Positions 11,833 to 53,034 are shown, counted from the first letter of the whole stretch. The stretch: DNA of 63,462 bases, filler included, from Acidimicrobiia bacterium (GCA_041619515.1; 3 parts of 3 records of this genome joined end to end with filler, not necessarily neighbours in it), one strand, 5' to 3'. The notes: a model not told the origin generated them from the sequence alone. Program-made: numbers and translations.

Positions 11833-13443
11833 TCAGGGCCCGGCGCCGATCTCGATCTCCCGGACCCTCGTCGTCCGCAACTCGCCGAACTCATCGCCGT
11901 CCCAGTAGGTCATGGTTCGCCACACCGTGACGGTGACGATCGGGCCGTTCCCCCGGTAGGGGTCCGGCCGGTAGGTCCACAACTGGGGAGGGGGCTGGAG
12001 GGCGCTCAGGGCGCCACGGTCGGGGTGGTCGTTCCAGTTCGAAACGAAGGTCGTCACGAAGCGGTCGAAGTCGGCCGCCCGCTCCTCGTCGAACAGAACG
12101 GTGCCGAGCTCCGCCTCCACCTGGAGAACCTCGGAGGCCGAGTCCGCATCGTAGAGCTCCTCGAGCAGGTCGCGGGTGCCGACCGCGCCCCAGTAATGGG
12201 GCAGCAGCTTGGTGTCCGCCGACAGATAATCGAACCCCGCCAGTGAGAACTGGTAGTCGAACGGGCGGAAGAAGCCGGGCGCCAGCTCGCCGGTCTGGCC
12301 GGAGGCGTCGGTGGCAACGAACCGGTAGGCGTAGGCGACGGGGGCGTCGAGCCATGCCAGGTTGACCGGCATGGACCACAGCGGCGCCGTCACCACCAGC
12401 CCGGTTCCGATGAGGGCATGAGACCATGTGAAGGTCGGCAGCGATGCGAGCAGCCGGTGGCGGAGCAGAAACGCAAGCAGCGCGACCTCCAGCACGATCC
12501 AGCGCCAGAAGAAGATGCCGGTGAGAGCCATCACGCCGAGGTGGAAGGCGATGAACAGGCCGAGCCAGCCGACGAGATTGCGACGGCTCCACAGGATGAA
12601 CACGGCGCCGAACTCGACGACCGCAGTTCCGATGAGCATCGGCCATGCCAGCGGCCGCAAGAAGCGGCCGACCGAGGAGACGGTGTCGGTCGAGAGCGAG
12701 CCCAGCCAGCCGTAGGCGTAGCTGCTGAACAGGTTCTTCTCGACGTGAGCGCCCACCTGCAGCCATCCCAGCCGGGCCTTGCCGACACCGGGAACCCAGT
12801 ACGCGCCGGCCACCAGGCAGACCAAGACGACGACAAAGTCGGCGTTGCGCCAGCGACCGACGATGAGGCGGATCACCATCAGCGCGATGAACAGCTCGAC
12901 GACCCGCACCAGCTGGTATTGCTCGGCGACCGAGTACCCGCCGATGGGATACTGAAACTGCTGGATGATCGTGGTCACGACCAGCAGCCACGGCACTGCG
13001 AAGACGGGACGCCACAGGGTGAGCGCGCCCAGGAGGATCAACACAAGCCGGTCGAACAGGTGGGCCCGATCGAGAAACAGGTTGTACTCGTAGGTCGAGA
13101 ACCACCAGGTCAGCAGGACGACGGCCGCGCCGACGGGCAGTCGGAACGACCATCCACGCTCGAATCCGGGCCAGCGCAGCCCGAACGATCCGGTGCGCCA
13201 GAGGGCTATTCCCCACAGGGCCAGAAGAACGGGGACGGCCAAGCCCAACCTGGTCATCGACTCGAGGATCAGGCTGGGCCGGGTGTAGCCGGCCTCGCCG
13301 AGATCCGTGATGCGAAGGACGATCTGGTCGATCACCACGAAGATGGCGACCAGGGCGCCGATCGGCCACCCGGTCGACCACAGGGCCTGGAGACCCCGTC
13401 CCGGCCGGTCACGCTGCGTGAGCTCTTGCGACGGCTCCGTCAC
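11833..13443 (-). CDS. Polytopic membrane protein, HTTM-like, with a soluble C-terminal domain
   Basis: About 10 TM segments, Y-W-x-P-G-x-G-K and F-H-x(7)-G-I-F-F-W patterns. Confidence 0.7.
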   Translation of the reverse strand: MTEPSQELTQRDRPGRGLQALWSTGWPIGALVAIFVVIDQIVLRITDLGEAGYTRPSLILESMTRLGLAVPVLLALWGIALWRTGSFGLRWPGFERGWSFRLPVGAAVVLLTWWFSTYEYNLFLDRAHLFDRLVLILLGALTLWRPVFAVPWLLVVTTIIQQFQYPIGGYSVAEQYQLVRVVELFIALMVIRLIVGRWRNADFVVVLVCLVAGAYWVPGVGKARLGWLQVGAHVEKNLFSSYAYGWLGSLSTDTVSSVGRFLRPLAWPMLIGTAVVEFGAVFILWSRRNLVGWLGLFIAFHLGVMALTGIFFWRWIVLEVALLAFLLRHRLLASLPTFTWSHALIGTGLVVTAPLWSMPVNLAWLDAPVAYAYRFVATDASGQTGELAPGFFRPFDYQFSLAGFDYLSADTKLLPHYWGAVGTRDLLEELYDADSASEVLQVEAELGTVLFDEERAADFDRFVTTFVSNWNDHPDRGALSALQPPPQLWTYRPDPYRGNGPIVTVTVWRTMTYWDGDEFGELRTTRVREIEIGAGP

Positions 13444-13710: not shown

Positions 13711-15105
13711 ATGGGGTTCGCGGTGAAGATCGTCTACATCACGAACGGGATGGCATCCACCCTCAACTCGAGCCTGGAATTGAGCCGCAGGCTGACGGAC
13801 GCGGGGCACGAGGTGATCTACCTGAGCCAGGCCGACGTGTGCCCCAGGGTGCAGGCGGCGGGGTATCGATGCCGCCGGCTGGAAGCCGATCAAGCCTTCC
13901 AGGAGGAAGCTCCCGGGCCGGTGTCGGTCAGGAACCCGATCGGCTGGGCTCGCACGCTGCTCCAGCGCCGGGGGATTCGCCGTCGGTCCGTTCGAAACAC
14001 CGAGATCGAGTCGGCGGTCGCCGAGCTGGATCCTGACCTGCTCCTGATCGACATCGAGATGCACTTTGCGATCATCGCCACCGCTTCGCTCGGCATACCG
14101 ACGCTGCTTCCCATCGTGTGGTTCTCCATCTTCAAACACCCCGCGCTCCCACCCATGCACACCAAGCTGACGCCGCCAGCCACCCCACGGGGGCGGCTCG
14201 CCATTGCGCTGGCCTGGTGGCGGTTGCGGATCCGGGTGATCGGCGGGGATTGGAAGGACCGCCTCAGGCGCACCCTCAGCGGAGACCTGTTCCGCCCCGT
14301 CGCCTACGACACCGTGAACATCGACGACCTGCGGGCGCTGGCAAAGTCGCGAACGTTCAGCTTGCGACGCAACGCCGACCGCTCACACTGGCTCCGCCCG
14401 TACGCGTACACCCGCCTACCCGTCCTCTCGTTCACGGCTCGCGAAATGGAGTTCCCCCATGAGCCCTGGCCGATGCTCCATTACGTCGGCCCAATGGTGC
14501 TCCGCGATCGACCCGAGACCCTCGTCGACGAGGCGGCCTCCGCCGCCTGGCGACGCTTCGCCGCCGACCGCCGGCCGGGGCGGCCCCTCGTCTACTGCTC
14601 GCTGGGAACCTTCTGGTCGATGGATGATGACTTCCTGCGCCGGGTGCTCGACGTCTTCGAGCGCCGCACCGACTGGGACCTCGTGATCGGGCTGGGCGGC
14701 AAGCTCGACCCGGCCCGGTTGGCGCCGATTCCGCCGAACGCGCTCGTCGTCGACTACGCGCCCCAGCTGGAGGTGCTGGCCCAGGCAGACTGCGCCATCA
14801 CCCACGGCGGCATCACAACCATCAACGAGTGCATCGAATTCGAGGTGCCGATGGTGGTGTATTCGACCGAGCATGTCGACCAGGACGGCTGCGCCGCCCG
14901 GGTGGCGTTCCATCGGCTGGGGGTGGTTGCCGACATCGGGGCCGCCGGCGTGGATGCGGTGGAAGGCAATATCGAACGCGCGCTGCAGGATGCGGAGATC
15001 CGGGAGAACGTCGCCGCCATGCGGGCCCACTTCGATGGGTACCGCAGCCCGGATGCCGCCGTCCGGCTGATCGAGTCACTCGGCGGTCCTCCGACCGACA
15101 CCTAG
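13711..15105 (+). CDS. GT1 family glycosyltransferase (MGT/UGT type)
   Basis: YCSLGT and PSPG-like box YAPQLEVLAQADCAITHGGITTINE...DQ. Start may be GTG13723. Confidence 0.9.
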   Translation: MGFAVKIVYITNGMASTLNSSLELSRRLTDAGHEVIYLSQADVCPRVQAAGYRCRRLEADQAFQEEAPGPVSVRNPIGWARTLLQRRGIRRRSVRNTEIESAVAELDPDLLLIDIEMHFAIIATASLGIPTLLPIVWFSIFKHPALPPMHTKLTPPATPRGRLAIALAWWRLRIRVIGGDWKDRLRRTLSGDLFRPVAYDTVNIDDLRALAKSRTFSLRRNADRSHWLRPYAYTRLPVLSFTAREMEFPHEPWPMLHYVGPMVLRDRPETLVDEAASAAWRRFAADRRPGRPLVYCSLGTFWSMDDDFLRRVLDVFERRTDWDLVIGLGGKLDPARLAPIPPNALVVDYAPQLEVLAQADCAITHGGITTINECIEFEVPMVVYSTEHVDQDGCAARVAFHRLGVVADIGAAGVDAVEGNIERALQDAEIRENVAAMRAHFDGYRSPDAAVRLIESLGGPPTDT

Positions 15106-15143: not shown

Positions 15144-16397
15144 TCAGCGGTCGTTCGCGGCCGGGCTCGGTGCCGGGCTGTACAGCTGCTTGATCGACCA
15201 CCGGAAGCCGACATAGCGAACGACGGCGAACCCGAGCAGCGAGAGCACGAGGGCGAAGGACTTGGTGACGGGGGCGGTGAAGGCGATGGGGATCTGCACG
15301 AGAGCGGCCACCACGTAGATCTTGAAGATGTCGCGTTCTCTCCGGCCTCCCACCAGCTGGGAATCCTCCGAGAACAGCATGCCCCAGAGGATGTTGTTCA
15401 CGATGGTGAGTGCGGTGAGGAACTCGATCGTGAAGGCCTCCCGGACCAGCCACCGCATCGGATTCCCCGGCCAATCGAACCCCATCCACACCAGGAACAC
15501 GAAGCCGGGAACGAGGACGACGAACTTGGAGATCCGGGCAAGCCGCATCCCCTCGGAGCGATTCCTCTCCCGACCTGCCAGCAGGGAGGGCGGGTTGAGG
15601 ACCGCCGATACCCCACCGACGAACACCAGCAGGGGCCGGGCGGCTATTCGGGCCGCCTCGGCGAAGCCGAGTGCCTCGCTGCCGGCGGTGATGTCGACGA
15701 TCGAGGCGGCCACGAAGGCGGCGCCGAGCTGTATGACGGCGACCCCGGCCAGCCACCGGCCGGGAGCAGCCAGGCTCCGAAGCGAGTAGGGGTCGCCCTC
15801 GGCAGGCACTGCGGTGCCCCGCGCCAGGGCGAAGCCGACCGTCATGGACACGATGTTGGCGGCCACCAGGGCTCCGAACGGGACCCAGGCCGGGTCGAGG
15901 TCGACGAGCACGCCCCCGGTGATGAACACTGCCGCCACCGCCAGCTGGACGACCGAGGTCATCGCAGCGAGCCAGGAACGACCCGCCAGGTGCATGACTC
16001 GTCGAACGTGATCCTGGATCGGGGAGAGGATCGCCGCAATCACCGCAGTGAGCGCGAGGGGGCCGAGCAACGACAACTCAGCATCGCGCGCCGGGATCCA
16101 CGCCAGCAGCACCAGCAAGCTCGAAACCAGCGCCACCGGGACGCCGGTGGGGAGCGTCAGACGGTACCCCGCCAGCTGGCCTTCCTTCGGCTGGCCGAGC
16201 AAGCGAACCTCGCCCGGTAGAAAAGAGAGCGTGAACGGGACGATGGTGGCAACCAGGAAGCTGGCGAAGAACAGTGCATACACGCCCAGCTCCGCCGGGG
16301 CGAGCTTGGCCGCGGCGTACACGCCGGTGCCGAAGGTTGCGAGCGCCGCCGAGCCGGCATCGAGAAGCCCGGCGGGGATCGACTTGGAAAGACGCAT
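15144..16397 (-). CDS. Oligosaccharide flippase-like (Wzx/MATE-like) membrane protein
   Basis: About 12 TM segments and an L-x-P-x-E-L-G-V-Y-A pattern near the N-terminus. Confidence 0.7.
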   Translation of the reverse strand: MRLSKSIPAGLLDAGSAALATFGTGVYAAAKLAPAELGVYALFFASFLVATIVPFTLSFLPGEVRLLGQPKEGQLAGYRLTLPTGVPVALVSSLLVLLAWIPARDAELSLLGPLALTAVIAAILSPIQDHVRRVMHLAGRSWLAAMTSVVQLAVAAVFITGGVLVDLDPAWVPFGALVAANIVSMTVGFALARGTAVPAEGDPYSLRSLAAPGRWLAGVAVIQLGAAFVAASIVDITAGSEALGFAEAARIAARPLLVFVGGVSAVLNPPSLLAGRERNRSEGMRLARISKFVVLVPGFVFLVWMGFDWPGNPMRWLVREAFTIEFLTALTIVNNILWGMLFSEDSQLVGGRRERDIFKIYVVAALVQIPIAFTAPVTKSFALVLSLLGFAVVRYVGFRWSIKQLYSPAPSPAANDR

Positions 16398-16496: not shown

Positions 16497-17822
16497 CTAG
16501 CCGACGTGGGGCTCATCAGCCGCCGGCAGCAGGCGCCCCCGATCTCTCTCCAACCAGAGCGTCGCCATCGACACCACGGTGAGGACGACGATCAGGATGA
16601 GCGAGCGGGGCCACAGCACGACGCGATCGACCAGCGCGTCGACATTCAGATCGATGCCGAATGCCCGGTCGAGCGCCCAGCCGGCGGCGATCGCCGCCAG
16701 CACTCCCGAGCCGGCATACATGGCCGGGAGGTAGAAACGGGTCCGGCGCAGCATGAAGAGGCTCGGGAACACCAGCAGGATGATGAGAGCCTGCCCCAGC
16801 TCGATCCCGAGGTTGAAGCCGAGCAGCGAGACGAAGCGCCGTGATTGGGTGAGGCCGAGGTCGCTGAGCAGGCCTGCGAACCCGAAGCCGTGGAACAACC
16901 CGAAGCCGAAGGCGATCAGCCACTCCTTGTTGACGAACAGCGGCCGGATGTTGTGGAGGGCGGCCAGCGCGATCGACAGCGCAATGACGGTTTCGACGAG
17001 GGCAGGCGGCAGCTCGATGATCCCCAGCCCACCCAGCGTCAGGGTGACGGTATGGGCCACGGTGAACATGGTCACGATCTTCAATACCCGCCACAGGCTG
17101 GATCCGAAACTCGGAGCCGCCCGCCAGCCGCCCTCGCGGGAGAACACCAGCACGCTGGGAAGCACGAGCGCGAGGATGAACAGGATGTGATCGGTCCCGA
17201 TCCGAATGTGCTCGACACCCAGGTCGATGACTCCTCCGACGCCTTTCCAGAACGACGTGTCACCAAGGTCGACCTGCTGGGTGGTGGTGCCGGGGGTGAA
17301 GCGCAAGAGCTCGCTGGCCTCGTTGTTGAAGGTCCCCGAGCCCCAGTCGGTGCCGATGATGAGGAGCGCGCTGCGCTCGGACTTGGCGTGAAGAATGCCG
17401 TCGTAGGTTGCCGTGAACCGGCGCGGCACCGGCGAGAACTCCCGGTCGACTGCGAAGTCGAGCACGAGGTACGAGCCGGCCGCACCGATGTCGAGTACCG
17501 AGAACTCTTCGAAGAGGATCGGCCACTCGCCCGTTACGTCGCCGAGCGCCAGGTGAGCAGTCACATAGTCCTCCAGCACCCGGCGGTTCTGCTCCGCAGC
17601 CGCCACAGCATCCTCTTCGTCGAATGGGAGACTGAGCGATAGGACCTCGTTGAGATCACCGATGGGGAACTCGACCCGCCCTTCGATGGTGGAGTCGTAC
17701 AGGTCGAGGTAGACGTAGCTCTCCTCGCCGCTGTGAGCAGAGGCCGCCGACGGCAACGCCAGCAGCACGAACAGCACCGCCAGCACCACCACGCGTCGTT
17801 TCCCGCCACCTGTTGTCAACAC
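16497..17822 (-). CDS. HupE/UreJ family membrane protein with N-terminal extracytoplasmic domain
   Basis: GVEHI-x-x-G-x-DHILF, FTVAHTVTL, FGLFHGFGFA, FNLGIELGQ; signal peptide ending ASA-H. Confidence 0.9.
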   Translation of the reverse strand: MLTTGGGKRRVVVLAVLFVLLALPSAASAHSGEESYVYLDLYDSTIEGRVEFPIGDLNEVLSLSLPFDEEDAVAAAEQNRRVLEDYVTAHLALGDVTGEWPILFEEFSVLDIGAAGSYLVLDFAVDREFSPVPRRFTATYDGILHAKSERSALLIIGTDWGSGTFNNEASELLRFTPGTTTQQVDLGDTSFWKGVGGVIDLGVEHIRIGTDHILFILALVLPSVLVFSREGGWRAAPSFGSSLWRVLKIVTMFTVAHTVTLTLGGLGIIELPPALVETVIALSIALAALHNIRPLFVNKEWLIAFGFGLFHGFGFAGLLSDLGLTQSRRFVSLLGFNLGIELGQALIILLVFPSLFMLRRTRFYLPAMYAGSGVLAAIAAGWALDRAFGIDLNVDALVDRVVLWPRSLILIVVLTVVSMATLWLERDRGRLLPAADEPHVG

Positions 17823-18175: not shown

Positions 18176-19303
18176 ATGGATGTCGATCGTAGTTCGTTCG
18201 GTACCACGATCATCGCACGGGATCACATCGCAACCATCGTCAACGCAGTCGGCCTCGACGCGCTCATGGACGAGATGATCGCCTCGCTGACAACGGCCAT
18301 CGAGGACTACGACGAAACCCGCACCCACGTCCGGACCCGGGACGGTTTCCACTATCGCGAGCCCGATGTCGGGCTGCTCGAATGGATGCCGGTGATGCAC
18401 ACGGCGCAGTCGACCACCATCAAGGTCGTCGGGTACCACCCGACCAACCCGACCAAGCGATCGCTCCCCACCATCCTCTCCACCATCAGCGTGTTCGACA
18501 CCGCCACCGGACATATGACGGGCCTGGCAGACGGGACGTTCCTCACGGCGCTTCGAACCGGGGCCGCCTCCGCCATCGCCAGCAAGGTGCTGGCCCGGCC
18601 CGAATCCCATGTTCTCGGCCTGGTCGGGTGCGGAGCACAATCCATCACCCAAATGCACGCCATCGTGCGCAGCTTCCCGATCGACCAGGTCCTCATCGCC
18701 GATGTCGACGAGCACAACGTCGACACGTTCGCCGGGCGAGCCGCCGAGATCCTGCCGCTGTCGGTTGAGATCAAGCCGACACCGGTGGATCTGCTCATGG
18801 CGTGGAGCGACATCGTCTGCACCTCGACATCCGTCGGCATCGGAGAGGGGCCTCTCTTCGCCGACCTGACCACCAAGCCGTGGCTCCACATCAACGCGGT
18901 CGGGTCGGACTTCCCCGGCAAGGTTGAGCTCCCGCTCTCGCTGCTCCGCCGCAGCCTCGTGTGCCCCGACGTGCCCGAACAGGCGGTCAAAGAAGGCGAG
19001 TGCCAGCAGCTCACCGCCGAGGAGATCGGCCCGCACCTGGCCAAGATCGTCGCCCGGCCCGACGAGTTCGCGCCCGCCCGGGACCGGCTAACCGTGTTCG
19101 ACTCGACCGGCTGGGCGCTGGGCGATCAGGTTGCCATGCAACTGCTGCTGCGCCACGCCGCCAACCTCGGAGTCGGGATCGAGATCAATCTCGAGGACAT
19201 TGGAGAGGACCCGCTCGACCCCTATCACCTCGGCCGGGAGCGCACCGGTGGCGGCTCCGGCACAGCTGCGATAGAGCAGGGCTCTCTCAACGCGGAGGGC
19301 TGA
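18176..19303 (+). CDS. Lysine/ornithine cyclodeaminase (RapL/PipA-like, probably L-pipecolate forming)
   Basis: LEWMP, LPTIL, LTALRTGAASA, HINAVG, EGECQQL, FDSTG and the C-terminal LDPY tail of the RapL subgroup. Confidence 0.88.
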   Translation: MDVDRSSFGTTIIARDHIATIVNAVGLDALMDEMIASLTTAIEDYDETRTHVRTRDGFHYREPDVGLLEWMPVMHTAQSTTIKVVGYHPTNPTKRSLPTILSTISVFDTATGHMTGLADGTFLTALRTGAASAIASKVLARPESHVLGLVGCGAQSITQMHAIVRSFPIDQVLIADVDEHNVDTFAGRAAEILPLSVEIKPTPVDLLMAWSDIVCTSTSVGIGEGPLFADLTTKPWLHINAVGSDFPGKVELPLSLLRRSLVCPDVPEQAVKEGECQQLTAEEIGPHLAKIVARPDEFAPARDRLTVFDSTGWALGDQVAMQLLLRHAANLGVGIEINLEDIGEDPLDPYHLGRERTGGGSGTAAIEQGSLNAEG

Positions 19304-20445
19304 TGGAGTTCGGCTTCACAGAGGACCAGGAGGCACTGCGGGCCGAGACGCTGGAATTCACCGCCTCCCTCGGCGGCGAGCCGGGCACCGGCGATGCAGG
19401 CGAGGGATTCGATCACAAGCTGTGGGCTCGCTGCGCCCAGTTCGGCATCCTCGGCGCGTTCGTTCCCGAGCAGTACGGAGGCCGCGGCCTCGACCTGGTA
19501 TCGGCCATGGTGATGATGGAGGCGCTCGGCTACGGATGCCGGAACAACGGCCTCACCCTCGCCCTCAACGGCCACATGTGGGCGGTCCAGGAGCCAATCC
19601 TGCGCTTCGGGACCGAAGCTCAAAAGCAGCGGTTCCTTCCCGGCATGGTCTCGGGGGCGCTGCTGGGCGCCGACGCGGTAACCGAGGCCGGCGCCGGCTC
19701 GGACGTCAACAGCATGCAAACCACCGCACACGAGCGGGACGGTGGGTACGTGCTGAACGGCCACAAGTCCTACATAGGGCTGGCACCGGTGTGCGACCTC
19801 GCGCTCGTGTTCGCCACCAGCGACCCGGCCCTCGGCCAGTGGGGCATCAACGCCTTCATCGTCCCGGCCGACAGCCCCGGGTTCCATCGGGGAGAGCCTC
19901 GCCCCAAGATGGGCCTGGACGGCAGCCCGCTGGGAGACATCGTGCTGGAGGACGTCTTCGTGCCGTCGGAGCTGCGGCTCGGCCCCAGGGGTGCCGGAGC
20001 AAGCATCTTCAATCACTCCCTGGATTGGGAACGCAGTTTCATCTTCGCCAGCCACGTCGGGTCGATGGATCGCCAGCTGGAGGAGAACATCGAATACGCC
20101 AGGAGCCGCCGCCAGTTCGGCGAGCCGATCGGACATTTCCAGTCGGTGGCCAATCGGATCGCCGACATGAAGCTGCGACTGGAGACGGCGCGCCTCCTCC
20201 TGTACAAGGCCGCCTGGATGATGGATCGCGGCGAGCCGGTCCAGATGGCGTCCGCCCTCGCCAAGCTCCACATCGCCGAGTCGTTCGTCAGCTCCAGCAT
20301 GGACTCGGTACGCAACCACGGCGCTCGCGGCTATCTGAGGGAGTTCGGACTGGAGCAGGATCTGCGCGACGCCGTGGGGGGAGTCATCTACGGTGGGACC
20401 TCCGATATCCAGAGGCGGGCCATCGCCCGCCTGCTCGGCTTGTGA
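19303..20445 (+). CDS. Acyl-CoA dehydrogenase family, aminoacyl-PCP dehydrogenase (PltE/RedW/AnaB-like)
   Basis: TEAGAGSD, LDWER (candidate catalytic Glu), RRQFG, IYGGTSDIQR. TGATG coupling to the upstream gene. Confidence 0.9.
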   Translation: MEFGFTEDQEALRAETLEFTASLGGEPGTGDAGEGFDHKLWARCAQFGILGAFVPEQYGGRGLDLVSAMVMMEALGYGCRNNGLTLALNGHMWAVQEPILRFGTEAQKQRFLPGMVSGALLGADAVTEAGAGSDVNSMQTTAHERDGGYVLNGHKSYIGLAPVCDLALVFATSDPALGQWGINAFIVPADSPGFHRGEPRPKMGLDGSPLGDIVLEDVFVPSELRLGPRGAGASIFNHSLDWERSFIFASHVGSMDRQLEENIEYARSRRQFGEPIGHFQSVANRIADMKLRLETARLLLYKAAWMMDRGEPVQMASALAKLHIAESFVSSSMDSVRNHGARGYLREFGLEQDLRDAVGGVIYGGTSDIQRRAIARLLGL

Positions 20446-20458
20446 CGGGAGAGCGGCG

Positions 20459-22057
20459 GTGATGCCTCCACACGTGTACTTGCTGCCGCAGCTGGTCGAA
20501 CGGGCGGCCGAGACCCGTCCCGACGGCGACGCCCTGCGCTGTCGCGGACAAGCGCTGACCTACTCACAGTTGTACGAGCGGGCATCTGCGCTGGCCAACG
20601 GCCTCGTAGAGAGCGGAATGCAACCCGGGGACAGAGTCGGCATCCTGCTCAACAAGGGCCTCGAGAGCGCCGTCGCCCTCTACGGCATCATGCTGGCCGG
20701 CGGGGTGTACGTGCCGCTCGACCCGTTTGCACCCTCCGCCCGCACCGAGTTCGTCATCCGGGACTGCGGGATTCGGCGCCTGGTGGCCGGCCCCCGCACC
20801 ACGCCGGCACTGGAAGCCCTCGCGCGAGCAGGTGTCGAGATCGAAACCGTGTTCGGGCTCGCCGACCACGAATCACTCCCCTTCCCGCTGGTGGGGTGGG
20901 ATGCCATCGGGGCGCTCCCGCCGGTTCCCCCGACCGTAGCGACCACCGAGCTGGATCTTTGCTACATCCTCTACACGAGTGGCTCGACCGGTACCCCCAA
21001 GGGCATCATGCACACGCACCGCAGCGCGCTGGCGTGGGCAGAGGTGTCGGCGGCAGCCTACGACCTCGGTCCGGCCGATGTCATCAGCAATTACGCCCCG
21101 CTGCATTTCGATCTCTCCACCCTCGACTACTTCGCAGGGGCGAAAGCAGGCGCGACCACCACCATCATTCCCGAGGAGATAACCAAGTTCCCCGCCAGCC
21201 TGGCGAGCCTGCTGGCGGACGAGCGGCTGACGGTGTTCTACACGGTGCCGATGGCGTTGATTCAGCTTGCCCAGCCCGGGATTCTCGACGAGCACGACCT
21301 CGACGCGCTGCGACTCGTCCTGTTCGGGGGCGAGCCGATGCCACTCAAGCACTTGCGGCGCATCATGGAACGGATCCCCCACGCCGAATTCGTCAACGTA
21401 TACGGGCCCACCGAGGTGAACGGCTGCACCCACCACCGGATCGACGCAATCCCGGCGGAGGACGACGAGCCTCTCCCGATCGGCCATCCCTATCCGAACG
21501 TCGAGGCACTGGTGGTCGACGAGCGCTCCGAGCCGGTGCCGGACGGGGAACCCGGTGAGCTGCTGATCCGGACACCGACGATGATGCGGGGATACTGGGC
21601 CCGCCAGGACCTCAACGAGGGGGCGTTCTACGAGCGAACCCCCTTTGGAGGGCTGCCTGAGGTCTTTCATCGCACCGGCGACCTGGTCCGGACCGGCGCC
21701 GACGGGGCGCTCCGGTTCCTGGGGAGAAAGGACCGGCAGATCAAGTCACGGGGCTATCGGGTCGAGCTGGACGAGGTGGAAGCGGTCCTGCTGTCCCATC
21801 CCGCCGTGCACGAGGCTGCGGTATACGCGATGCCGGATGCCGAAGGCTCGCTGGAGATTCGCGCCGAAGCGATCCCGGTCTCCGGAGACGTCGACTCGGC
21901 CGAGCTGGTCGGGCACCTGCGGCGGTCGCTTCCCTCCTACGCGGTTCCCGCTGCGGTGAGGCTGCGGGAGTCGTTCCCGCGTACCTCGTCGGGCAAGATA
22001 GACCGGCTGGCCATGCAGGCCGACTCGGTCGAGGCGCCGGCGGCGGTAAGGGGGTAG
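20459..22057 (+). CDS. Stand-alone amino-acid adenylation enzyme (PltF/RedM-like; proline/pipecolate)
   Basis: YTSGSTGTPKG, FDLS, YGPTE, RTGDL, PRTSSGKIDR; no T or C domain. Confidence 0.92.
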   Translation: MMPPHVYLLPQLVERAAETRPDGDALRCRGQALTYSQLYERASALANGLVESGMQPGDRVGILLNKGLESAVALYGIMLAGGVYVPLDPFAPSARTEFVIRDCGIRRLVAGPRTTPALEALARAGVEIETVFGLADHESLPFPLVGWDAIGALPPVPPTVATTELDLCYILYTSGSTGTPKGIMHTHRSALAWAEVSAAAYDLGPADVISNYAPLHFDLSTLDYFAGAKAGATTTIIPEEITKFPASLASLLADERLTVFYTVPMALIQLAQPGILDEHDLDALRLVLFGGEPMPLKHLRRIMERIPHAEFVNVYGPTEVNGCTHHRIDAIPAEDDEPLPIGHPYPNVEALVVDERSEPVPDGEPGELLIRTPTMMRGYWARQDLNEGAFYERTPFGGLPEVFHRTGDLVRTGADGALRFLGRKDRQIKSRGYRVELDEVEAVLLSHPAVHEAAVYAMPDAEGSLEIRAEAIPVSGDVDSAELVGHLRRSLPSYAVPAAVRLRESFPRTSSGKIDRLAMQADSVEAPAAVRG

Positions 22058-22059
22058 CG

Positions 22060-22320
22060 GTGGAATCGACACAAGCGGCACTGCTGCGATTCGTGAACGA
22101 GGATCTGCTCGGCGGGACCGGCGGCGCTGCCGGAAGCGACGACGAGATCGTCCTCGACGGCACGGTGGATTCGCTCGGGGTGGCCCGCCTGATCGGCTTC
22201 ATGGAGAGCGAGTTCGACGTGGCCGTCCCGGCCGAGGACGTGACGATCGAGAACTTCCGGTCGATCACCACCATGGCTGCCTACCTCCACCAGCGCGTCG
22301 AGTCGAAGGCCGCGTCGTGA
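22060..22320 (+). CDS. Stand-alone acyl/peptidyl carrier protein
   Basis: 86 aa, acidic, G-x-V-D-S-L-G phosphopantetheine site. Confidence 0.92.
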   Translation: MESTQAALLRFVNEDLLGGTGGAAGSDDEIVLDGTVDSLGVARLIGFMESEFDVAVPAEDVTIENFRSITTMAAYLHQRVESKAAS

Positions 22321-25300
22321 GCTCAGCCGAGGGCAACGGCCGGCCGGCGGGATGGCTGCCCCTGACGAATGCGCAACAGTTGATCTGGGCGAGCCAGCAG
22401 CTCCACCCCGACGCGCCGCTCTACAACATGGCGTTCATCTTCGAGATCTCCGGCGAGGTGGAGCCGGCTGCATTCACCGAAGCGTTCCGCAGGTTGATGG
22501 ATCAGTGCGACGCACTGCGAACCGTCCTCGACAGCGCAGACGGCGTCCCCCGCCAGCGAGTCCTCGACACCCTTGAATTCGATCTCCCGATCGTCGATGT
22601 CGGCGCCTCCCCCGACCCGGCGGCGGCGGCCCGGGAATGGGCGCAACAGCAATGCGAGGCCCCGTTTCGCCTCGACCACCGGCTCTTCGACACGGCGCTC
22701 CTCCGGCTGGGTGCCGGCCACTGGGCCTGGTATTTCAACCAGCATCATCTCGTCACCGACGCCTGGTCGTCTGCGGTCATCTACGAGCGGATGGAGAGTC
22801 TGTACCGGAGCATCCGGCGCGGAACCGAAGGTCCCGACGGACCGCTCCCCCCGTTTGCGGAGTATCTCCCCTTCGAGCGGGCGAGCGCCGCCGAGGCCGG
22901 CCTCTCCGACGGCGCCGGGGCGGCACCCGGCACCTCGCTCTCCCTGTACGGCCGGCGGGCCCGGCCGGCCGGGACCCGCAACACCCGCCTCACCCACCAA
23001 CTGTCGGAAACCCAGACGGAACAGCTCGCCGATCTGGCACTGGCTCCGAAGTTCCGGGCGCTCACCCCGGACCTGACCCGCTTCCGGCTGATCGCAACCG
23101 CCCTGTTCGCTTATTTGCATCGTGTCGGCGGACAGCCGCGCCTCACGATCGGCGCTCCGGCCCACAACCGGGCCACATCCGAATTCCGCCAAAGCGCCGG
23201 GCTGTTCATGGAGATGTTCCCTCTCGACGTCGAAATCGAGCCGGGTGAGACCTTCGCCTCACTGCACACGAAGGTGGCGGCCGCGGCCGACGCCTTCATC
23301 CGGAGCGCACGGCCCGGCGGCAGCACGGCCCAGATGAACCGCACCATCAACGCCGTCCTCAACGTCATCCGCGGCGAGTTCTCCGACTTCGACGGGGCGC
23401 CGGTGCATGCCGAATGGCTCCACCCCGGGCACGTCGACGCAGAGCATCATCTGCGCCTCCAGGTCCATGATTTCAACGCCACCGGCCGGCTCACCCTGCT
23501 GTTCGACTGCAGCCGCGATTTGCTGGACGAGGACCTCCTGCCCGAGGTCCCTGAGCACTTCCTCCGCGTCTTCGATGCCATGCTCGCCGACGTCGAGCAG
23601 CCCATCGCCGAGGTCGATCTCTTGTCGGCCGACCAGCGCCGGGCGGTGCTCGACGCCGTCAACGGCACCACCCTCCAAGGCGCCGGCTGGGCCTCGGTGG
23701 TGCAACGGTTCGAGAACTGGGTCCGGGCCGATCCCGGCGCGGTTGCGCTGGCCGATCAGGCACGGCGCTGGAGCTACGCCGAGCTGGATGCCGCTACCTC
23801 CCGCATCGCAGCCGGCATCAGCCCGGGGTCGGTGGTCGGTGTCTGTCTCGGGCGATCACCCGAGGCCGTCATCACCATGCTGGGCGTGCTGAGGGCCGGA
23901 GCAGCCTACGTTCCGATCGACCCCGGCTGGCCGCTCAGCCGCATCGAATACGTAGTGAGCGACGCCGGGTGCTCGCTCCTCGTCTCCGACCGGCCGCTCC
24001 CGATCGCCTCCGTTGCCTTCGCCGACCTCCTGGCATCGGAGCCGCAGGCCGAGCCGGTCAGGATCGCCGACCACGATCTCGCCTACGTCCTCTACACCTC
24101 GGGGTCCACCGGCCGGCCGAAGGGCGTGATGATCGAGCACGGGTCGCTTGCCAACTACGTGAGCTGGGCAAGTGATTTCTACGACTCCGGAAGACGCTTG
24201 TCGTTCCCGCTGTTCACCCCACTCACGTTCGACCTCACCGTCACCTCGGTGTTCGTCCCACTCACATCGGGCGGCTCGATCGTCGTCTACCCGGAGGCGG
24301 AAGGGCCGGCGGACACCGCCGTGCAGCAGGTGTTCGAAGACGGAGCCGTCGACATCGTCAAGCTCACCCCGTCCCACCTGGCCCTGCTACCCGATCGCGA
24401 CTACTCATCGTCGAACATCCGCCAGTTGATCCTCGGCGGGGAGGACCTGACGGCGGCCGCCGCCCGCCGGGTGCACGACCGCTTCTCGGGCAACCTGCGG
24501 ATTCACAACGAATACGGCCCGACCGAAGCCACCGTCGGCTGCATCGTCCACACCTACGAGGCGTCCCGGGATGGCTCCGGCAGCGTCCCGATCGGAACTC
24601 CGATCCGGAACATGCGGGCCTACGTGCTCGATGAGGGCGGCAGACCCGTCCCGTTCGGCGTTCCCGGAGAGCTCTGGCTCGCCGGCGCCGGGCTGGCCCG
24701 CGGCTATGCCGGTGCACCCGACCTGACCGCCGACCGGTTCTTCGGAAACACGCACGTCGACGAGGAGCGCCTCTACCGGACCGGCGACCTGGCACGGGTC
24801 CGCACCACCGGCACCATCGAATACCTCGGCCGGCAGGACGACCAGGTCAAGGTCCGGGGCGCCAGGCTCGAGCTGGGAGAGGTCGAGGCTGCCCTGGCCA
24901 CCCATCCCCTGATCACCGCCACCGCCGCCCGGGTGTGGGAACGGGAACGCCCGGCCGCCCCCGAAGAGCTGGTCTATTGCGCACGATGCGGCCTCGCCTC
25001 CGACTACCCGGACGTCGAGTTCGACGCCGGGCGCGTGTGCAATCACTGCCGCTCCTTCGAAACCTACCGGGACAAGGCCCAGGTGTACTTCAAGCCGATG
25101 GCAGAGCTGGCCGCAGTGTTCCAGTCAGACCGCCCCGGCCCCGCGCCCGAATACGATTGCATCGCCCTCCTCAGCGGAGGCAAGGACAGCACCTACGCCC
25201 TGTGCCGGCTGGTCGACATGGGCCTGCGGGTGCTGGCCTTCACACTCGACAACGGGTACATCTCCAACGACGCCAAGGCGAACATCCGCCGGGTGGTGAC

Positions 25301-26600
25301 GGCGCTCGGCGTGGACCATGTGTTTGCCTCGACCCCGGCGATGAACGAGATCTTCGTCGACAGCCTGCAGCGCCACGGGAACGTCTGCAACGGCTGTTTC
25401 AAGACCATCTACACGCTGAGCCTCGAAACCGCCCGGGAGAAGAAGATCCCCTTCATCGTCACCGGGCTGTCGCGTGGACAGTTCTTCGAGACCCGGCTCA
25501 CCGAGGAGCTGTTCACCGAGCTGACCGTCAGCTCCGACCAGATCGACGCCAACGTCCTCGAGGCCCGCAAGGCCTACCACCAGGTTGACGACGCCGTACA
25601 CCGGCTGCTCGATGTTTCGATCTTCGACGGCGACGCCATCTTCGACGACGTGCAATTCGTCGATTTCTACCGGTATTGCGACGTCGACCTCGACGAGCTC
25701 ATGGCCTACCTGGACGAGCGGGTCCCGTGGGTGCGGCCGAGCGACACCGGTCGCTCCACCAACTGCCGAATCAACGACGTCGGGATCTACTTCCACAGGC
25801 AGACCCGCGGCTTTCACAATTACTCCCTCCCCTACAGCTGGGACGTCCGCATGGGACACAAGACCCGGGAGGCGGCTCTCGATGAGCTCGACGATGACAT
25901 CGACGTTGCCGAAGTGCAGCGGATTCTCGCCGAGATCGGGTTCCCGGAGGACGTCGCCGACCTCGAAACCGGCCGCCGTCTGGTCGCCTACTACGTCGCC
26001 CCCGAGGACATCTCGGCCTCCGAGCTGCGCCTGCACGTCGGCGAGGCGCTACCCGAGCAGATGGTGCCCTCGCTGTTCGTCCGGCTCGACGCCATCCCGC
26101 TGTCGGCGAATGGCAAGGTGGACCGGGAGGCGCTCCCCGAGCCCGGGAAAGGCCGGCCCCAGGTGGATTCGGTGTTCCTGGCCCCCCGCACCGAAGCCGA
26201 AATCACGCTGAGCACCATCTGGCAGGACGTCCTCGGGATCGACGGGATCGGCGTACGCGACAGCTTCTTCGACCTCGGCGGCGACTCCATCATGGCCATC
26301 CAGATCGTGGCCAGAGCCCACCGCGCCGGGCTGAACATCACCCTCCAGCAACTGTTCAACGCCCTCACGGTGGAACGCCTTGCCCAGTCGGCAGGCGGCG
26401 TCCATCAGATCGCTGCCGAGCGGGTCGTCGGCCCCGTCGGGATGACGCCGATCCAGCGGTGGTTCCTCGAGGAACACGGCAACGAGGGGCACTTCCACCA
26501 GGTGCTGCACCTGGACGTGCCAGAAGGGCTCGACCGAGGGCTCTTGGCCGAATGCCTCACGGCATTGGCAGGCCATCACGACGCGCTCAGACAGAGCTTC
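22317..26600 (+). CDS. NRPS, 3'-truncated: starter C - A(Asn) interrupted by AMDH-like domain - T - start of E domain
   Basis: HHLVTDA, A-domain core motifs, hand-extracted code DLTKIGEVGK, SGGKDS insert, LGGDSI T domain, TPIQRWF...HHDALR. Runs into the gap. Confidence 0.95.
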
Positions 26601-26700
26601 NNNNNNNNNNNNNNNNNNNNNNNNNNNNNNNNNNNNNNNNNNNNTTAATTAATTAANNNNNNNNNNNNNNNNNNNNNNNNNNNNNNNNNNNNNNNNNNNN
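26601..26700. other. Artificial contig linker
   Basis: N runs flanking TTAATTAATTAA (stops in all six frames). Confidence 0.97.
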
Positions 26701-30913: not shown

Positions 30914-30975
30914 ATCACCGAATGTAGGGATTGACTGTGACAGAAAGGGCCGCAACTGCGACAATCGGCCACCAC

Positions 30976-32481
30976 ATGAGTGTTGCCGACGATCTCCGCC
31001 AGTCTCTCGAGGATCTCGCGGGCGAATTGGAGAGCTTCCAATTTCGCGTGCCGGGGCCCGACCAGTCGGCGCGGGAACGCGCCCGAACCGAGCTGGTTCG
31101 TTCCATCCGGGAGTACTTGCTGCCCCGTCTCGAGGACCCCGACGCGCCGGTGGTCGCCGTCCTGGTCGGGCCGACCGGGAGCGGCAAGTCGGTAATGCTG
31201 AACTCGCTCGCAGGCGAGAAGGCAAGCGCTCCCGGGGCGCTGCGCCCCACCACGCGGTCACCGGTGGTGTGGGCGAACCGTCGCCACGTGCGGCGGTACG
31301 AACGGCTGCTCGGCGGCCTGATCGGCGGCGATGCCGCCGGCATCGTCGCAGGGGCCGACCCGATAACCGAGCAGCTCACCGTGGTCGATGCGCCCGATTT
31401 CGACTCGGTCTACGCCGACAGCCGGGTCATCGGCGAGCAGGTGCTGGCGGTCGCCGACCTGTGCATCTTCGTCGCCAGCGCCCTCCGGTACGCCGACGCG
31501 GCCGCCTGGCAATTCCTCGACCAGATCCGCACACGCGGGCTGCCGATACTCTTCGTTCTCAACCGGCTCGGTCCGGACCCGGAAACCCGCAAACTGATCT
31601 TGGCGGATTTCGCCGCGCTGCTGAAAGAACGCGATCTGCTCCTGGAGGCCGACGCGTCATTGATATTCGACGTCTCCGAACAGCTCATCTATCCGCGCCA
31701 TGGCGGGCTGCATGCTGATGCAGTAGCGGCGATCCGCCAGGAGCTCGCTCTCATCTCGGACCCGGCTCTGCGCCGGGCGGTGGTTCGTCAATCCACCGAG
31801 GGAGCGGTGGCAGAGGTGATCGACAAAGTGGGGAGCATCGCCCAGGGCATCGCGACCGACCGTTCGGTGGTGGCCACCCTCCACACGCTGGCCGAGGAGG
31901 CCTACGCCTCTGAGCTCACCATCTCCAAACAGCTCGTGACTTCCCGGGATTTGGTCGCACTCGGCTCGTTGGGCGATCGGGACGCCATCGCCCGGGAGCT
32001 CGCCTCGGCCATCTCGCGCCGGGCGGGGGTGGCCGCCCGCGATGCCGCCGATGCCTGGGACTCGACCGAGGAAGGCCACGCGTTGCTGACCGAGGCTGAG
32101 GAGCTGTGGCGGCACGGCGCCGAGACGCCCGAGGTCGCCGAGCGGGAGGTGAGCGCATGGCTCGACGTCGTGGACGCGGCGCTGGCCCCGGCCGTGCGCC
32201 GTCCACGGGCCAGGCGAAAGGCGGCAACCTCGCTGGCGCGAGCGCTGCTGACGGGCTCGGGTGAGGCCGTCTCCGGCCGTGCAGGCGAGCTGGCCAACGA
32301 CGAGGGGTGGCAGGGCGGGCTTCTCGCCGATCTCGAAGACCGGATTGCCATCGTGCTGGCGCAGGATGCCGATCGGTTCCTCGCCTTGACCGGCGAGATC
32401 GGCATCGCTGAAGGCCTGGCCGAGACCATTCGCAGCATGGCGGCCGCCGTGTCCGAGCGGGCAGGTGAGTTCTACCGGTGA
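30976..32481 (+). CDS. Dynamin-like GTPase 1
   Basis: GPTGSGKS, RPTT, DAPDFDS, RYAD, VLNR, long helical C-terminus. Confidence 0.85.
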   Translation: MSVADDLRQSLEDLAGELESFQFRVPGPDQSARERARTELVRSIREYLLPRLEDPDAPVVAVLVGPTGSGKSVMLNSLAGEKASAPGALRPTTRSPVVWANRRHVRRYERLLGGLIGGDAAGIVAGADPITEQLTVVDAPDFDSVYADSRVIGEQVLAVADLCIFVASALRYADAAAWQFLDQIRTRGLPILFVLNRLGPDPETRKLILADFAALLKERDLLLEADASLIFDVSEQLIYPRHGGLHADAVAAIRQELALISDPALRRAVVRQSTEGAVAEVIDKVGSIAQGIATDRSVVATLHTLAEEAYASELTISKQLVTSRDLVALGSLGDRDAIARELASAISRRAGVAARDAADAWDSTEEGHALLTEAEELWRHGAETPEVAEREVSAWLDVVDAALAPAVRRPRARRKAATSLARALLTGSGEAVSGRAGELANDEGWQGGLLADLEDRIAIVLAQDADRFLALTGEIGIAEGLAETIRSMAAAVSERAGEFYR

Positions 32482-33725
32482 GCGACGTGATCAGTGCCCT
32501 CGACCTCCTCGATCTCGCCATCGGCCGGTCGGAGCGAATAGTCACCGATGATGAGGCCAAAGCCGCCCGGGATGCCGCCGCCCGTATCCGCGATCGGCGC
32601 GGGTTCCTGGGCGAAACCCTGGTGATTGCCATCGCAGGCGGAACCGGGTCGGGAAAGTCGAGCCTGCTCAACGCAGTTGCCGGGCGCCGTATCGCCGAGA
32701 CCGGTGTGCTGCGGCCCACGACCGAACAGGCGCTGGCGTGGATCCCGACGGAGCCGGAGACCGGCCTCGTAGAGCTGCTGGATCGGCTGGAGATCGAGGG
32801 TCGCTACGAGCAGGATGTGCTCCCGAAGCTGGCGATCATCGACCTCCCCGACCACGACAGCATCGTTCTTCGTCACCATCAGATTGTCGAGCGGCTCCTG
32901 CCGGAAGTGGACGCCGTCGTCTGGGTGTTCGATCCCCAGAAATACCGGGATCCGTTGATCCATGAGGAGTACATTGCCCGGCTGCTCGAATACCAGGACC
33001 AGTTCCTGTTCGTCCTCAATCAAATCGATCTGCTCGGCCAGCACGACCTCACGGCACTGCGAGACGACCTGATCAAGTCTCTCGAAGAGGATGGCATCGG
33101 GGCACCCCGTGTCTTCGAGCTGGCGGCAGATCCTCCAGGAGTGGAACCGGTCAATGTCGATCCGTTCAGGGACTATCTTCGGGATCAGTTGGACGCCAAG
33201 GCGGTGGCGGCGGGGAAGCTGCTGGGGGACATTCGCCGCGTCGGCAAGCAGCTGAGGGCACAGGCCGGCCTGGATGCCGGTGCCGGGGTGGGATTCGAAG
33301 CACGCTGGCCCTCGGTGCGTGCCTCGGTGGTGCAGGCGATCACCGACGGGCTGGGCTTCGACGACGCGGTGTGCCGGATCGGTGATTTTGTGACCGCCCT
33401 GTCGGTGGAGACGGGCGGCCGCTTTGGCGCCCAGCTGCGAGAAGCTTTTTCGGACGGGCGCATCGAGGATGAGCTGTCGCAGGCCCTCGCCGAATCCGGT
33501 GTGAAGCCGGCCCCCCCGGTCAACCGCAGTCGAATCGGGTCCGCCCTGCACACATTCTGGTTCGGCGAGGACCGGCCCTCCGATCCGGAAGCTGTCGCGG
33601 CCTTCGCCCGTCAGCTGGAGTCCCGGTTCGGGCACAGTCTCTTCGAGATGCTGTGGGAGCGGAGCGTGCTCGGGGCCACGCTCATCCAGGTCGAAATCGA
33701 AGCCCGGCTGGCGGAAAACCGCTAG
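32478..33725 (+). CDS. Dynamin-like GTPase 2 (YfjP/IniC-like)
   Basis: GGTGSGKSS, RPTT, DLPDHDS, DPQKY, LNQID; GTGA overlap with the upstream gene. Confidence 0.85.
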   Translation: MSDVISALDLLDLAIGRSERIVTDDEAKAARDAAARIRDRRGFLGETLVIAIAGGTGSGKSSLLNAVAGRRIAETGVLRPTTEQALAWIPTEPETGLVELLDRLEIEGRYEQDVLPKLAIIDLPDHDSIVLRHHQIVERLLPEVDAVVWVFDPQKYRDPLIHEEYIARLLEYQDQFLFVLNQIDLLGQHDLTALRDDLIKSLEEDGIGAPRVFELAADPPGVEPVNVDPFRDYLRDQLDAKAVAAGKLLGDIRRVGKQLRAQAGLDAGAGVGFEARWPSVRASVVQAITDGLGFDDAVCRIGDFVTALSVETGGRFGAQLREAFSDGRIEDELSQALAESGVKPAPPVNRSRIGSALHTFWFGEDRPSDPEAVAAFARQLESRFGHSLFEMLWERSVLGATLIQVEIEARLAENR

Positions 33726-52934: not shown

Positions 52935-53034
52935 NNNNNNNNNNNNNNNNNNNNNNNNNNNNNNNNNNNNNNNNNNNNTTAATTAATTAANNNNNNNNNN
53001 NNNNNNNNNNNNNNNNNNNNNNNNNNNNNNNNNN
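52935..53034. other. Artificial contig linker
   Basis: N runs flanking TTAATTAATTAA. Confidence 0.97.

Follow-up and report, generated by a model that had tools for sequence, protein, structure and literature searches.

The four-gene cassette at positions 18176–22320 of the window, a stretch of 63,462 nucleotides from an Acidimicrobiia bacterium (GCA_041619515.1), is probably a new, ring-enlarged variant of the type II NRPS ring oxidation that takes proline to pyrrole, and it is known from its genes, domains, specificity codes and synteny. It encodes a predicted lysine cyclodeaminase, an ACAD-fold flavin oxidase, a stand-alone adenylation (A) enzyme and a stand-alone carrier protein, which together would probably convert lysine to pipecolate, load it onto the carrier and desaturate the ring there. 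To our knowledge, oxidation of a carrier-bound ring is known only for proline-type five-membered rings. If true, the pipecolate version extends the set of building-block routes and might offer a new means of making pyridines. It stands at the head of an orphan cluster family whose predicted product is a small, capped peptide containing His.

Gene layout and enzymes of the cassette

The window is composed of three contigs joined by N spacers, which the preliminary description did not mention. The contig carrying the cluster (G000:C39) ends at 26600 within the first NRPS gene (NRPS1) and is followed by an N spacer at its boundary (26601–26700); therefore, the window sequence beyond 26700 is unrelated to the cluster. 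All four cassette genes are intact, lie on the plus strand in high-GC3 frames and are located where they had been placed. The cyclodeaminase and ACAD genes share a TGATG overlap, the ACAD and A genes are separated by 16 nt and the A and carrier genes by 2 nt, and the carrier gene runs into NRPS1 through a GTGA overlap. The genes, frames and junctions confirm the preliminary description of a tightly coupled run overlapping an NRPS that begins with a C domain, and the synteny that it proposed to search for is conserved among 26 cyclodeaminase loci of other genomes. No promoter or terminator match was found upstream of the cassette.

The first gene (18176–19303, plus strand) encodes a 375-aa protein (PF02423) of the OCD/mu-crystallin fold. 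Its best PDB matches are the lysine cyclodeaminase entries 5gzi/5yu0 (309 bits, E 3e-91), compared to 126 bits (E 1e-35) for ornithine cyclodeaminase 1u7h, and bit scores and tree both place it nearer to SpLCD than to OCD. In the tree, computed with FastTree, streptogramin-cluster cyclodeaminases group with the cassette enzyme and canonical OCD falls far outside; identity to Streptomyces plasmid cyclodeaminases, three of them in streptogramin-type clusters, is 46–48%. The equivalents of R49, E63, K77, V79, R121, D236, K240, S301 and T302 are kept and the A235 position is Ser. Residues E63/W64/K77/G80/Y81/R121 are kept in 32/32 distinct family members, and a canonical OCD (L188) has L/N/G/V at 64/80/81/302, where the cassette enzyme differs. 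Identity as an ornithine cyclodeaminase was rejected on the NCBIfam OCD score (164.6 against a cut-off of 350 bits) and the position outside the OCD branch, and identity as SbnB of diaminopropionate biosynthesis on the TIGR03944 score (55.7 against 326.9 bits). A single-sequence AlphaFold model was unusable (pLDDT 33.8). By sequence, the enzyme is a member of the lysine-cyclodeaminase clade, RapL/PipA-type and not ornithine-type. RapL, FkbL, PipA and VisC share its clade and active site; those systems pass free pipecolate to modular NRPS domains or P450 oxidation (PMC9854754), whereas here the cyclodeaminase is linked to a trio of stand-alone A enzyme, carrier and ACAD.

The next gene (19303–20445, plus strand) encodes a 380-aa flavin-dependent ACAD-fold oxidase of the prolyl-carrier type (AnaB/PigA/Bmp3-like). 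Its PDB matches are 4irn (360 bits), 5zw0 (299) and 6cxt (294), against at most 231 bits for ordinary ACADs, and it scores under the NCBIfam equivalog cut-offs for PigA (395.6/500) and RedW (376.8/650). The Plt, Red, Pig, Bmp and Ana gene names attached to PDB codes are in part those that we take the entries to carry. Glu243 aligns with the catalytic Glu of prolyl-carrier oxidases, which is Ala in the 6af6 variant, and Tyr363-Gly364 stands where AnaB/PigA/Bmp3-type enzymes have Tyr/Phe-Ser.

The third gene (20462–22057, plus strand) encodes a 531-aa stand-alone (type II) A enzyme with a cyclic-imino-acid pocket that is PltF-like, its pocket region being nearest to the L-proline–carrier ligases 6o6e and 7thn. 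The code reads DLLYLGVGC, compared to DLLYLALVC (6o6e) and DLFYIAWVC (7thn), and three residues are smaller (Ala301Gly, Leu322Val, Val330Gly), so that by sequence the pocket, with Gly301, Val322 and Gly330, is enlarged relative to PltF/PigI. The Ala301 and Val330 of the Plt/Red/Pig/Ana proline code are not present, and the three positions are near-invariant in proline trios. The literature searched yielded no pipecolate code derived from a characterised A domain. The last gene (22060–22320, plus strand) encodes an 86-aa carrier protein (PF00550, 21.3 bits, cut-off 20.8) with a DSL motif (Ser38), and this gene keeps its place in relatives.

The combination of a stand-alone A enzyme, a carrier and an ACAD-fold oxidase is also found in PltF/PltL/PltE, RedM/O/W, PigI/G/A, Bmp4/1/3 and AnaC/D/B, and the catalytic Glu of the oxidase is shared. 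The cassette differs from these in its added lysine cyclodeaminase, its G/V/G rather than A/L/V pocket, the replacement of Ser by Gly in the C-terminal loop of the ACAD and the hand-over to an NRPS C domain.

Pocket code and cyclodeaminase across genomes

Within the fetched flanks of the 26 cyclodeaminase loci, an ACAD is present in 19/26 (locus L026, beyond these, has one further downstream), an A domain in 21/26 and the AMDH-type insert described below in 13/26, and several of the missing genes belong to loci that end at a contig edge. All 20 readable cyclodeaminase-anchored loci have the Gly301 code, which also occurs in 103 of the 120 nearest A homologues. In a class sample of 401 genomes (30/32 matches fetched), the cyclodeaminase lies beside 6/10 Gly301 loci versus 0/20 Ala301 loci, 19 of the latter in genomes where no cyclodeaminase was found. 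In a metagenome sample it was found in 4/9 Gly301 loci (4/5 of those with enough flank) and in 0/71 Ala301 loci on the fetched DNA, 23 of which have at least 4 kb upstream. Pocket enlargement and cyclodeaminase occur together, though these counts are not independent events because the Gly301 A domains form essentially one clade in a FastTree phylogeny (30/33 tips, support 0.988). Two separate events agree with the co-occurrence: in G038, with code Ala301, a hydrolase abuts the ACAD in the position that the cyclodeaminase occupies in sister clusters; in G239, a member of the same genus, the NRPS genes are shared, the A domain is of the proline-trio type with Ala301, and neither a cyclodeaminase nor an AnaB-type ACAD was found. 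The ACAD C-terminal loop follows a similar division, with Gly/Ala after the Tyr in 19/20 ACADs of Gly301, mostly cyclodeaminase-linked, loci and Ser in 17/19 proline-type ACADs; this difference may reflect ancestry, given the single Gly301 clade.

A simple equation of Gly301 with pipecolate is weakened by Gly301 forms without a linked cyclodeaminase. Four of these (G240, G336-C6, G104-C3 and L110) each occur with a PhyH dioxygenase and have a distinct DQF code, G240 encoding a canonical OCD only, and one on a Pseudohalocynthiibacter plasmid occurs with a methyltransferase. Because the enlarged pocket is also seen beside such a hydroxylase or methyltransferase, it denotes a substrate larger than proline and the code is not pipecolate-specific. 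If true, Gly301/Val322/Gly-or-Gln330 is a sequence rule for recognising type II A domains for enlarged rings, which annotation would assign to proline. The cassette recurs across many uncultured bacteria, and its cluster family occurs in Acidimicrobiia, cyanobacteria, Rhodothermales, Phycisphaerales and proteobacteria. Natural pairs that have or lack the cyclodeaminase allow direct comparison, and versions are present in two named strains, Leptolyngbya cf. ectocarpi LEGE 11479 (cyclodeaminase present) and Pseudohalocynthiibacter aestuariivivens RR4-35 (cyclodeaminase absent).

Proposed route and alternative explanations

In the proposed route, the NAD+-dependent cyclodeaminase would convert L-lysine to L-pipecolate, judging from its clade and active-site residues, and the A enzyme, its pocket widened by the three substitutions, would adenylate pipecolate and load the carrier. 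The AnaB/PltE-type flavoenzyme would then desaturate the tethered ring, Glu243 taking the alpha proton, to give a piperideine at least and possibly a dihydropyridine or picolinyl group. The clade, the enlarged pocket and its co-occurrence with the cyclodeaminase make it highly likely that pipecolate is made and loaded, and the lysine to pipecolyl-carrier part of the preliminary description is well supported in sequence. Oxidation on the carrier is likely; that it proceeds as far as picolinyl is a tentative suggestion and rather unlikely; if true, it would mean that a pyridine can be built while bound to a carrier. The caerulomycin/collismycin (CaeP1/CaeP2/CaeA1) and streptogramin 3-hydroxypicolinate (HpaA/VisA) systems also use a lysine-derived six-membered N-ring as carrier-bound starter, but there the free acid is formed by an aminotransferase and an oxidase before loading (PMC8149447, PMC9854754). 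A scan of C39 genes surrounding the cassette and of the two NRPS genes of contig C45 found no lysine aminotransferase or oxidase gene. Searches of open-licence literature found no description of the cassette or its route, in line with the statement in the preliminary description that no characterised example was known.

Pipecolate might instead be loaded and passed on unoxidised, the ACAD being either vestigial or directed at a different tethered residue, Asn or His. CaeB1 (PMC8149447) is a precedent for ACAD-fold flavoproteins that work in trans on elongation residues, and the AnaB-type ACAD is absent between the cyclodeaminase and the A gene in G115, G203 and L016. The inference of an unoxidised cap in G115 and G203 is, however, weakened by a different ACAD directly after the last NRPS gene, so that two of the three ACAD-less versions have another at the cluster end. 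The cassette ACAD is itself intact, translationally coupled, nearest to prolyl-carrier oxidases and retained in most fetched loci, which makes this explanation improbable. An ordinary pyrrolyl or pyrrolinyl cassette, with ornithine cyclised to proline and the trio acting as in PltF/L/E or AnaC/D/B, would fit the A and ACAD enzymes, which are nearest to proline-pathway enzymes, and lysine cyclodeaminases also cyclise ornithine, as does that of S. pristinaespiralis (PMC5935100). The proline-code version of the same cluster in G239 adds to this, so that a five-membered ring is evidently acceptable to C domains of the downstream family. Against it stand the three altered pocket positions, the low OCD score and separate branch of the cyclodeaminase, and the absence of a cyclodeaminase from all 91 Ala301 loci (71 metagenome and 20 genome, scored on fetched DNA only, many short). 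This explanation is improbable, and the pairing of an ornithine enzyme with a proline-code A domain, named in the preliminary description as the case against its proposal, does not match the sequences.

The substrate could also be another enlarged imino acid: proline or pipecolate bearing a substituent, or a ring built from a non-lysine precursor. Genes for PhyH, a methyltransferase or a halogenase do accompany some Gly301 versions, and in showdomycin biosynthesis (PMC8724604) a dedicated cyclase similarly feeds a stand-alone A enzyme and carrier (SdmE/SdmC/SdmD) with on-carrier oxidation, although that ring is glutamine-derived, five-membered and released for C-glycosylation. This is likewise improbable here: orthologues of the PhyH, methyltransferase, sulfotransferase and hydrolase queries were not found in the source genome (95.65% complete), the PhyH-linked forms have their distinct code, and the lysine-cyclodeaminase active site is kept.

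Downstream NRPS and neighbouring genes

The pipecolyl-derived cap would be handed to NRPS1 (22317–26600, plus strand), which by Pfam comprises C-A(Asn)-T and the first part of an E/C domain, where the contig stops; in the complete orthologue L005 it continues into a second condensation-family domain. The A-domain code DLTKIGEVG reads as Asn and is listed as compatible with cyanoalanine (PMC12283262). This A domain holds an AMDH-like PP-loop insert (24975–25913, plus strand) with SGGKD at aa 953 and Cys motifs, matched by TIGR03573 over aa 887–1199 (111.5 bits, below cut-off); no solved structure was found for it. Going by the published description (PMC7966384), CysH of cystobactamid and AlbIV of albicidin resemble it in having an SGGKD insert of about 335–340 aa in an Asn-coded A domain, but the module here is in-line (C-A-T), placed between a ring acyl starter and a His-type module. 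The code and insert support the modified Asn that the preliminary description gave as the partner of the cap.

Contig C45 (A-T-E, then C-T-TE) very probably carries the continuation of the cluster, the physical join being deduced, and the C45 genes are 50–65% identical to NRPS2 and NRPS3 of complete relatives. Contigs C51/C115 were rejected as the continuation; they encode a different NRPS-PKS, 36–39% identical to the cluster modules, with a code that is presumably Ser-like. By code reading, the downstream modules are predicted to specify Asn, with the AMDH-like insert, and then His. The first C domain of NRPS1 would couple the acyl cap to Asn, the insert probably turning it into cyanoalanine or isoasparagine; NRPS2 would add His and the C-T-TE protein would free a capped dipeptide, which may be glycosylated.

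A membrane protein of the HupE/UreJ_2 type (16497–17822, minus strand; PF13795, E 1e-45) is divergently transcribed from the cassette and is the most constant companion gene, found by tblastn in 15/26 cyclodeaminase loci. A TonB receptor is present in two metagenome loci. To these two proteins is tied the metallophore part of a wider reading, speculative and unlikely as a whole, in which a six-electron oxidation by the ACAD would turn pipecolyl into picolinyl, with air possibly responsible for the last step; the cluster would make a picolinoyl-(modified Asn)-His metallophore for Ni, Cu or Co working with the HupE/UreJ protein; and caps would be varied as clusters gain or lose the cyclodeaminase, the ACAD, the hydroxylase, the methyltransferase and the halogenase. 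The Asn would perhaps be closed to a pyrimidinone, by analogy with the pyrimidinone in the metal-binding head of bleomycin.

Further upstream, the ORF at 15144–16397 (minus strand) encodes a membrane protein without a family match (Pfam search negative), which we take to be flippase-like from its appearance; its homologues adjoin the cluster in L005, L015, L016, G239 and G203. The GT1/MGT-like glycosyltransferase at 13711–15105 (plus strand; Pfam EryCIII-like_C/UDPGT) is probably a tailoring enzyme and has homologues in the related clusters L005, G239, G203, L124 and L158. An uncharacterised membrane protein (11833–13443, minus strand) has no Pfam or NCBIfam match; its top Atlas matches are hypothetical clusters, and homologues at 27–38% identity lie inside clusters L011, L091, L099 and L124.

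Gene order and ring supply of the cassette

The cassette is located on contig C39 (window positions 1–26600) of a 3.1 Mb genome that is 95.65% complete, and its closest named relatives are Acidimicrobiia MAGs. It is composed of four genes on the forward strand encoding a cyclodeaminase (18176–19303), an ACAD (19303–20445), a stand-alone adenylation (A) enzyme (20462–22057) and a carrier protein (22060–22320). The next gene, NRPS1 (from 22317, forward strand), is interrupted by the end of C39. The junctions consist of two overlaps and gaps of 16 and 2 nt, and the coupled gene run previously described is confirmed. The N spacers with a short linker at 26601–26700 and 52935–53034 join unrelated contigs (C39, C40 and C91), and apparent neighbours across them are artefacts. 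Contig C40 encodes two overlapping dynamin-like GTPases followed by an MMPL transporter (30931–33725, forward strand).

The best solved relatives of the cyclodeaminase are lysine cyclodeaminase structures from S. pristinaespiralis (309 bits, E 3e-91), compared to 126 bits for ornithine cyclodeaminase (OCD). The lysine-cyclodeaminase residues named in PMC5935100 are kept except for A235, which is Ser, and E63, W64, K77, G80, Y81 and R121 are invariant in 32/32 distinct family members. The canonical OCD of genome G240 differs at residues 64, 80, 81 and 302 and forms a long outer branch in the tree, and three cyclodeaminases of streptogramin-type clusters group with the window family (support 0.84). 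Scores, residues and tree place the enzyme in the RapL/PipA-type family and support the lysine-to-pipecolate step of the preliminary description. Belonging to this family does not by itself settle which product is made, because enzymes of this type also cyclise ornithine according to PMC5935100. One cyclodeaminase in genome G336 (contig C12) stands outside any such cassette.

The cassette shares its working logic with PltF/L/E and AnaC/D/B, but its A enzyme lacks their proline code and its ring supply belongs to the RapL family. Caerulomycin- and streptogramin-type picolinate arises by an aminotransferase route (PMC8149447 and PMC9854754), from which the cassette differs, in line with the distinction drawn earlier for caerulomycin/collismycin. 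Showdomycin (PMC8724604) is closest in logic. No description of a six-membered-ring cassette was found in searches of open-licence papers, in agreement with the earlier remark that no characterised example of this route is known, and PMC12426817 and PMC7723355 added nothing further on pipecolate cassettes.

Adenylation pocket and its association with the cyclodeaminase

The pocket region of the A enzyme most resembles that of two proline-carrier ligases, 6o6e and 7thn. Pocket alignment gave the codes DLLYLALVC and DLFYIAWVC for these two and DLLYLGVGC for the window enzyme, whose residues at GrsA positions 301, 322 and 330 are smaller, and so the pocket should have space for one extra methylene. 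A similar Ala-to-Gly shift separates proline from pipecolate codes in modular A domains; a literature search found no paper on this shift.

Among the best 120 of 5531 A homologues, residue 301 is Gly in 103 and the proline-type Ala in 17, and all 20 readable A codes from the 26 loci found by cyclodeaminase have Gly301. A class sample of 401 genomes gave A matches in 29 and cyclodeaminase matches in 8 (30/32 A matches retrieved). The cyclodeaminase adjoins none of its 20 Ala301 genes, 19 of which are in genomes where no cyclodeaminase was found, and for the ten Gly301 genes (own genome counted) a cyclodeaminase lies within approximately 6 kb of six, a contig edge cuts off one and three have none nearby. 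The metagenome sample (best 80 of 646 loci) contains a cyclodeaminase in 0/71 Ala301 loci, only 23 of which have at least 4 kb upstream, and in four of nine Gly301 loci, with four too short and one lacking it. These counts are not independent, since 30 Gly301 tips fall inside one clade of 33 in a tree built without the code columns.

Greater weight falls on two individual events. In genome G038, a hydrolase gene abuts the ACAD gene, whereas the cyclodeaminase sits between the two in sister clusters, and the A domain is nested in the Gly301 clade and has the code DLFYVAIGC. Genome G239, from the genus of the window genome, has the same NRPS genes (NRPS1 59% identical) preceded by an A domain of the proline-trio branch (DLLYLALVC); a search of this 94% complete genome found neither a cyclodeaminase of RapL type nor an ACAD of AnaB type.

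Gly301 loci without a linked cyclodeaminase also exist. Four of them (G240, G336-C6, G104-C3 and L110) encode a PhyH dioxygenase and have the A sub-code DQF, and a Pseudohalocynthiibacter plasmid combines Gly301 with a methyltransferase. Genomes G104 and G336 carry a cyclodeaminase elsewhere, and only an OCD was found in G240. Gly301 therefore marks a substrate larger than proline and is not a strict pipecolate rule. Pipecolate is the likely substrate here given the cyclodeaminase beside the A gene, and the earlier proposal of pipecolate loading keeps the enlarged code and this linkage in its favour. The DQF sub-code accompanies PhyH in six loci. Trios of proline-code A, ACAD and carrier are encoded in many Acidimicrobiia (L050–L072), and neither an NRPS C domain nor a PKS match lies within 1.5 kb of them.

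Predicted oxidation of the loaded ring

The ACAD matches three prolyl-carrier oxidases best (4irn, 5zw0 and 6cxt), far above ordinary ACADs. It scores under the PigA and RedW cut-offs. Its Glu243 aligns with the Glu replaced by Ala in variant 6af6; according to PMC10849742, this catalytic Glu serves as the base for C2 deprotonation. The residue following the C-terminal Tyr is Gly in the window ACAD and Ser in prolyl-carrier oxidases; it is Gly/Ala in 19/20 ACADs of Gly301 loci, mostly cyclodeaminase-linked, and Ser in 17/19 of proline type. We take this position to line the substrate site, as in MCAD, although ancestry could explain the pattern.

AnaB, the closest structure and presumably a two-electron enzyme, mildly favours piperideine over further oxidation, and repeated desaturation with air oxidation could yield picolinyl. 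Given pipecolyl loading, a piperideine is a credible if tentative outcome and a picolinyl group an equally tentative one, while an unoxidised ring is unlikely and a dihydropyridine more doubtful still. Three relatives (G115, G203 and L016) lack the AnaB-type ACAD in the cassette. In the first two, the last NRPS gene is immediately followed by a gene for a different, non-orthologous ACAD (L038:5399–6541 and L098:5264–6424; 29–33% identity, 72% to each other, Glu at the same place). It is a possible replacement, so these two clusters give no evidence that the cassette can do without oxidation.

Downstream assembly line and companion genes

The code of NRPS1 is DLTKIGEVG, and its SGGKD-bearing insert (aa 887–1199) fits an AMDH-type domain as in CysH/AlbIV, supporting at the sequence level the modified Asn suggested earlier. 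The AMDH domain of CysH/AlbIV dehydrates or isomerises Asn and has numerous orphan homologues, as noted in PMC7966384. In complete relatives, NRPS1 is followed by C-A-T(-E) and C-T-TE genes, the second module having the code DSALIAEVW or near, a type listed as His in PMC12283262. Matching A-T-E and C-T-TE genes (DSVCIAEVW, 50–65% identity to relatives) lie at the end of contig C45 of the same genome, from which we infer that the cluster continues from C39 to C45. One Acidimicrobiia subgroup (L031:2016–6053 and L007–L014) carries an additional C-A-T gene upstream, which is Asn-coded and extended at the C-terminus. The subgroup also has an alpha/beta hydrolase, and its A code contains Asn at position 278.

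Companion genes encode HupE/UreJ (15/26 cyclodeaminase loci), a GT1 glycosyltransferase and membrane proteins, and the clusters of some relatives also include genes for a sulfotransferase, methyltransferase, halogenase, TonB receptor or capsule. A predicted His-containing, ring-capped peptide beside HupE/UreJ suggests a possible role in metal binding. A surface role is an alternative, as the cassette of locus L158 continues into the capsule genes Wza/Wzc/NeuB/NeuC (L158:7646–21526).

TonB-dependent receptors are encoded inside clusters L124 (6571–8817) and L158. Starter genes of the AMDH-NRPS family are interchangeable (L082–L084, L085, L087, L089, L093, L110 and L199): the cyclodeaminase and ACAD are present or absent, and a PhyH dioxygenase, a methyltransferase or a halogenase is added. 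A 536-aa membrane protein of no family (11833–13443, reverse strand) recurs in these clusters and has no more than a weak MauE/DoxX lead (Atlas score 0.88). The gene at 15144–16397 (reverse strand) has no Pfam family and two paralogues elsewhere in the genome (contigs C64 and C6, 66–70% identity). The same genome encodes a second, separate hybrid cluster split over contigs C51 and C115 (L002:1–5768 and L003:2907–6356), in which a C-A-T NRPS is followed by a KS-AT-KR-T-C PKS near sugar-nucleotide-like genes.
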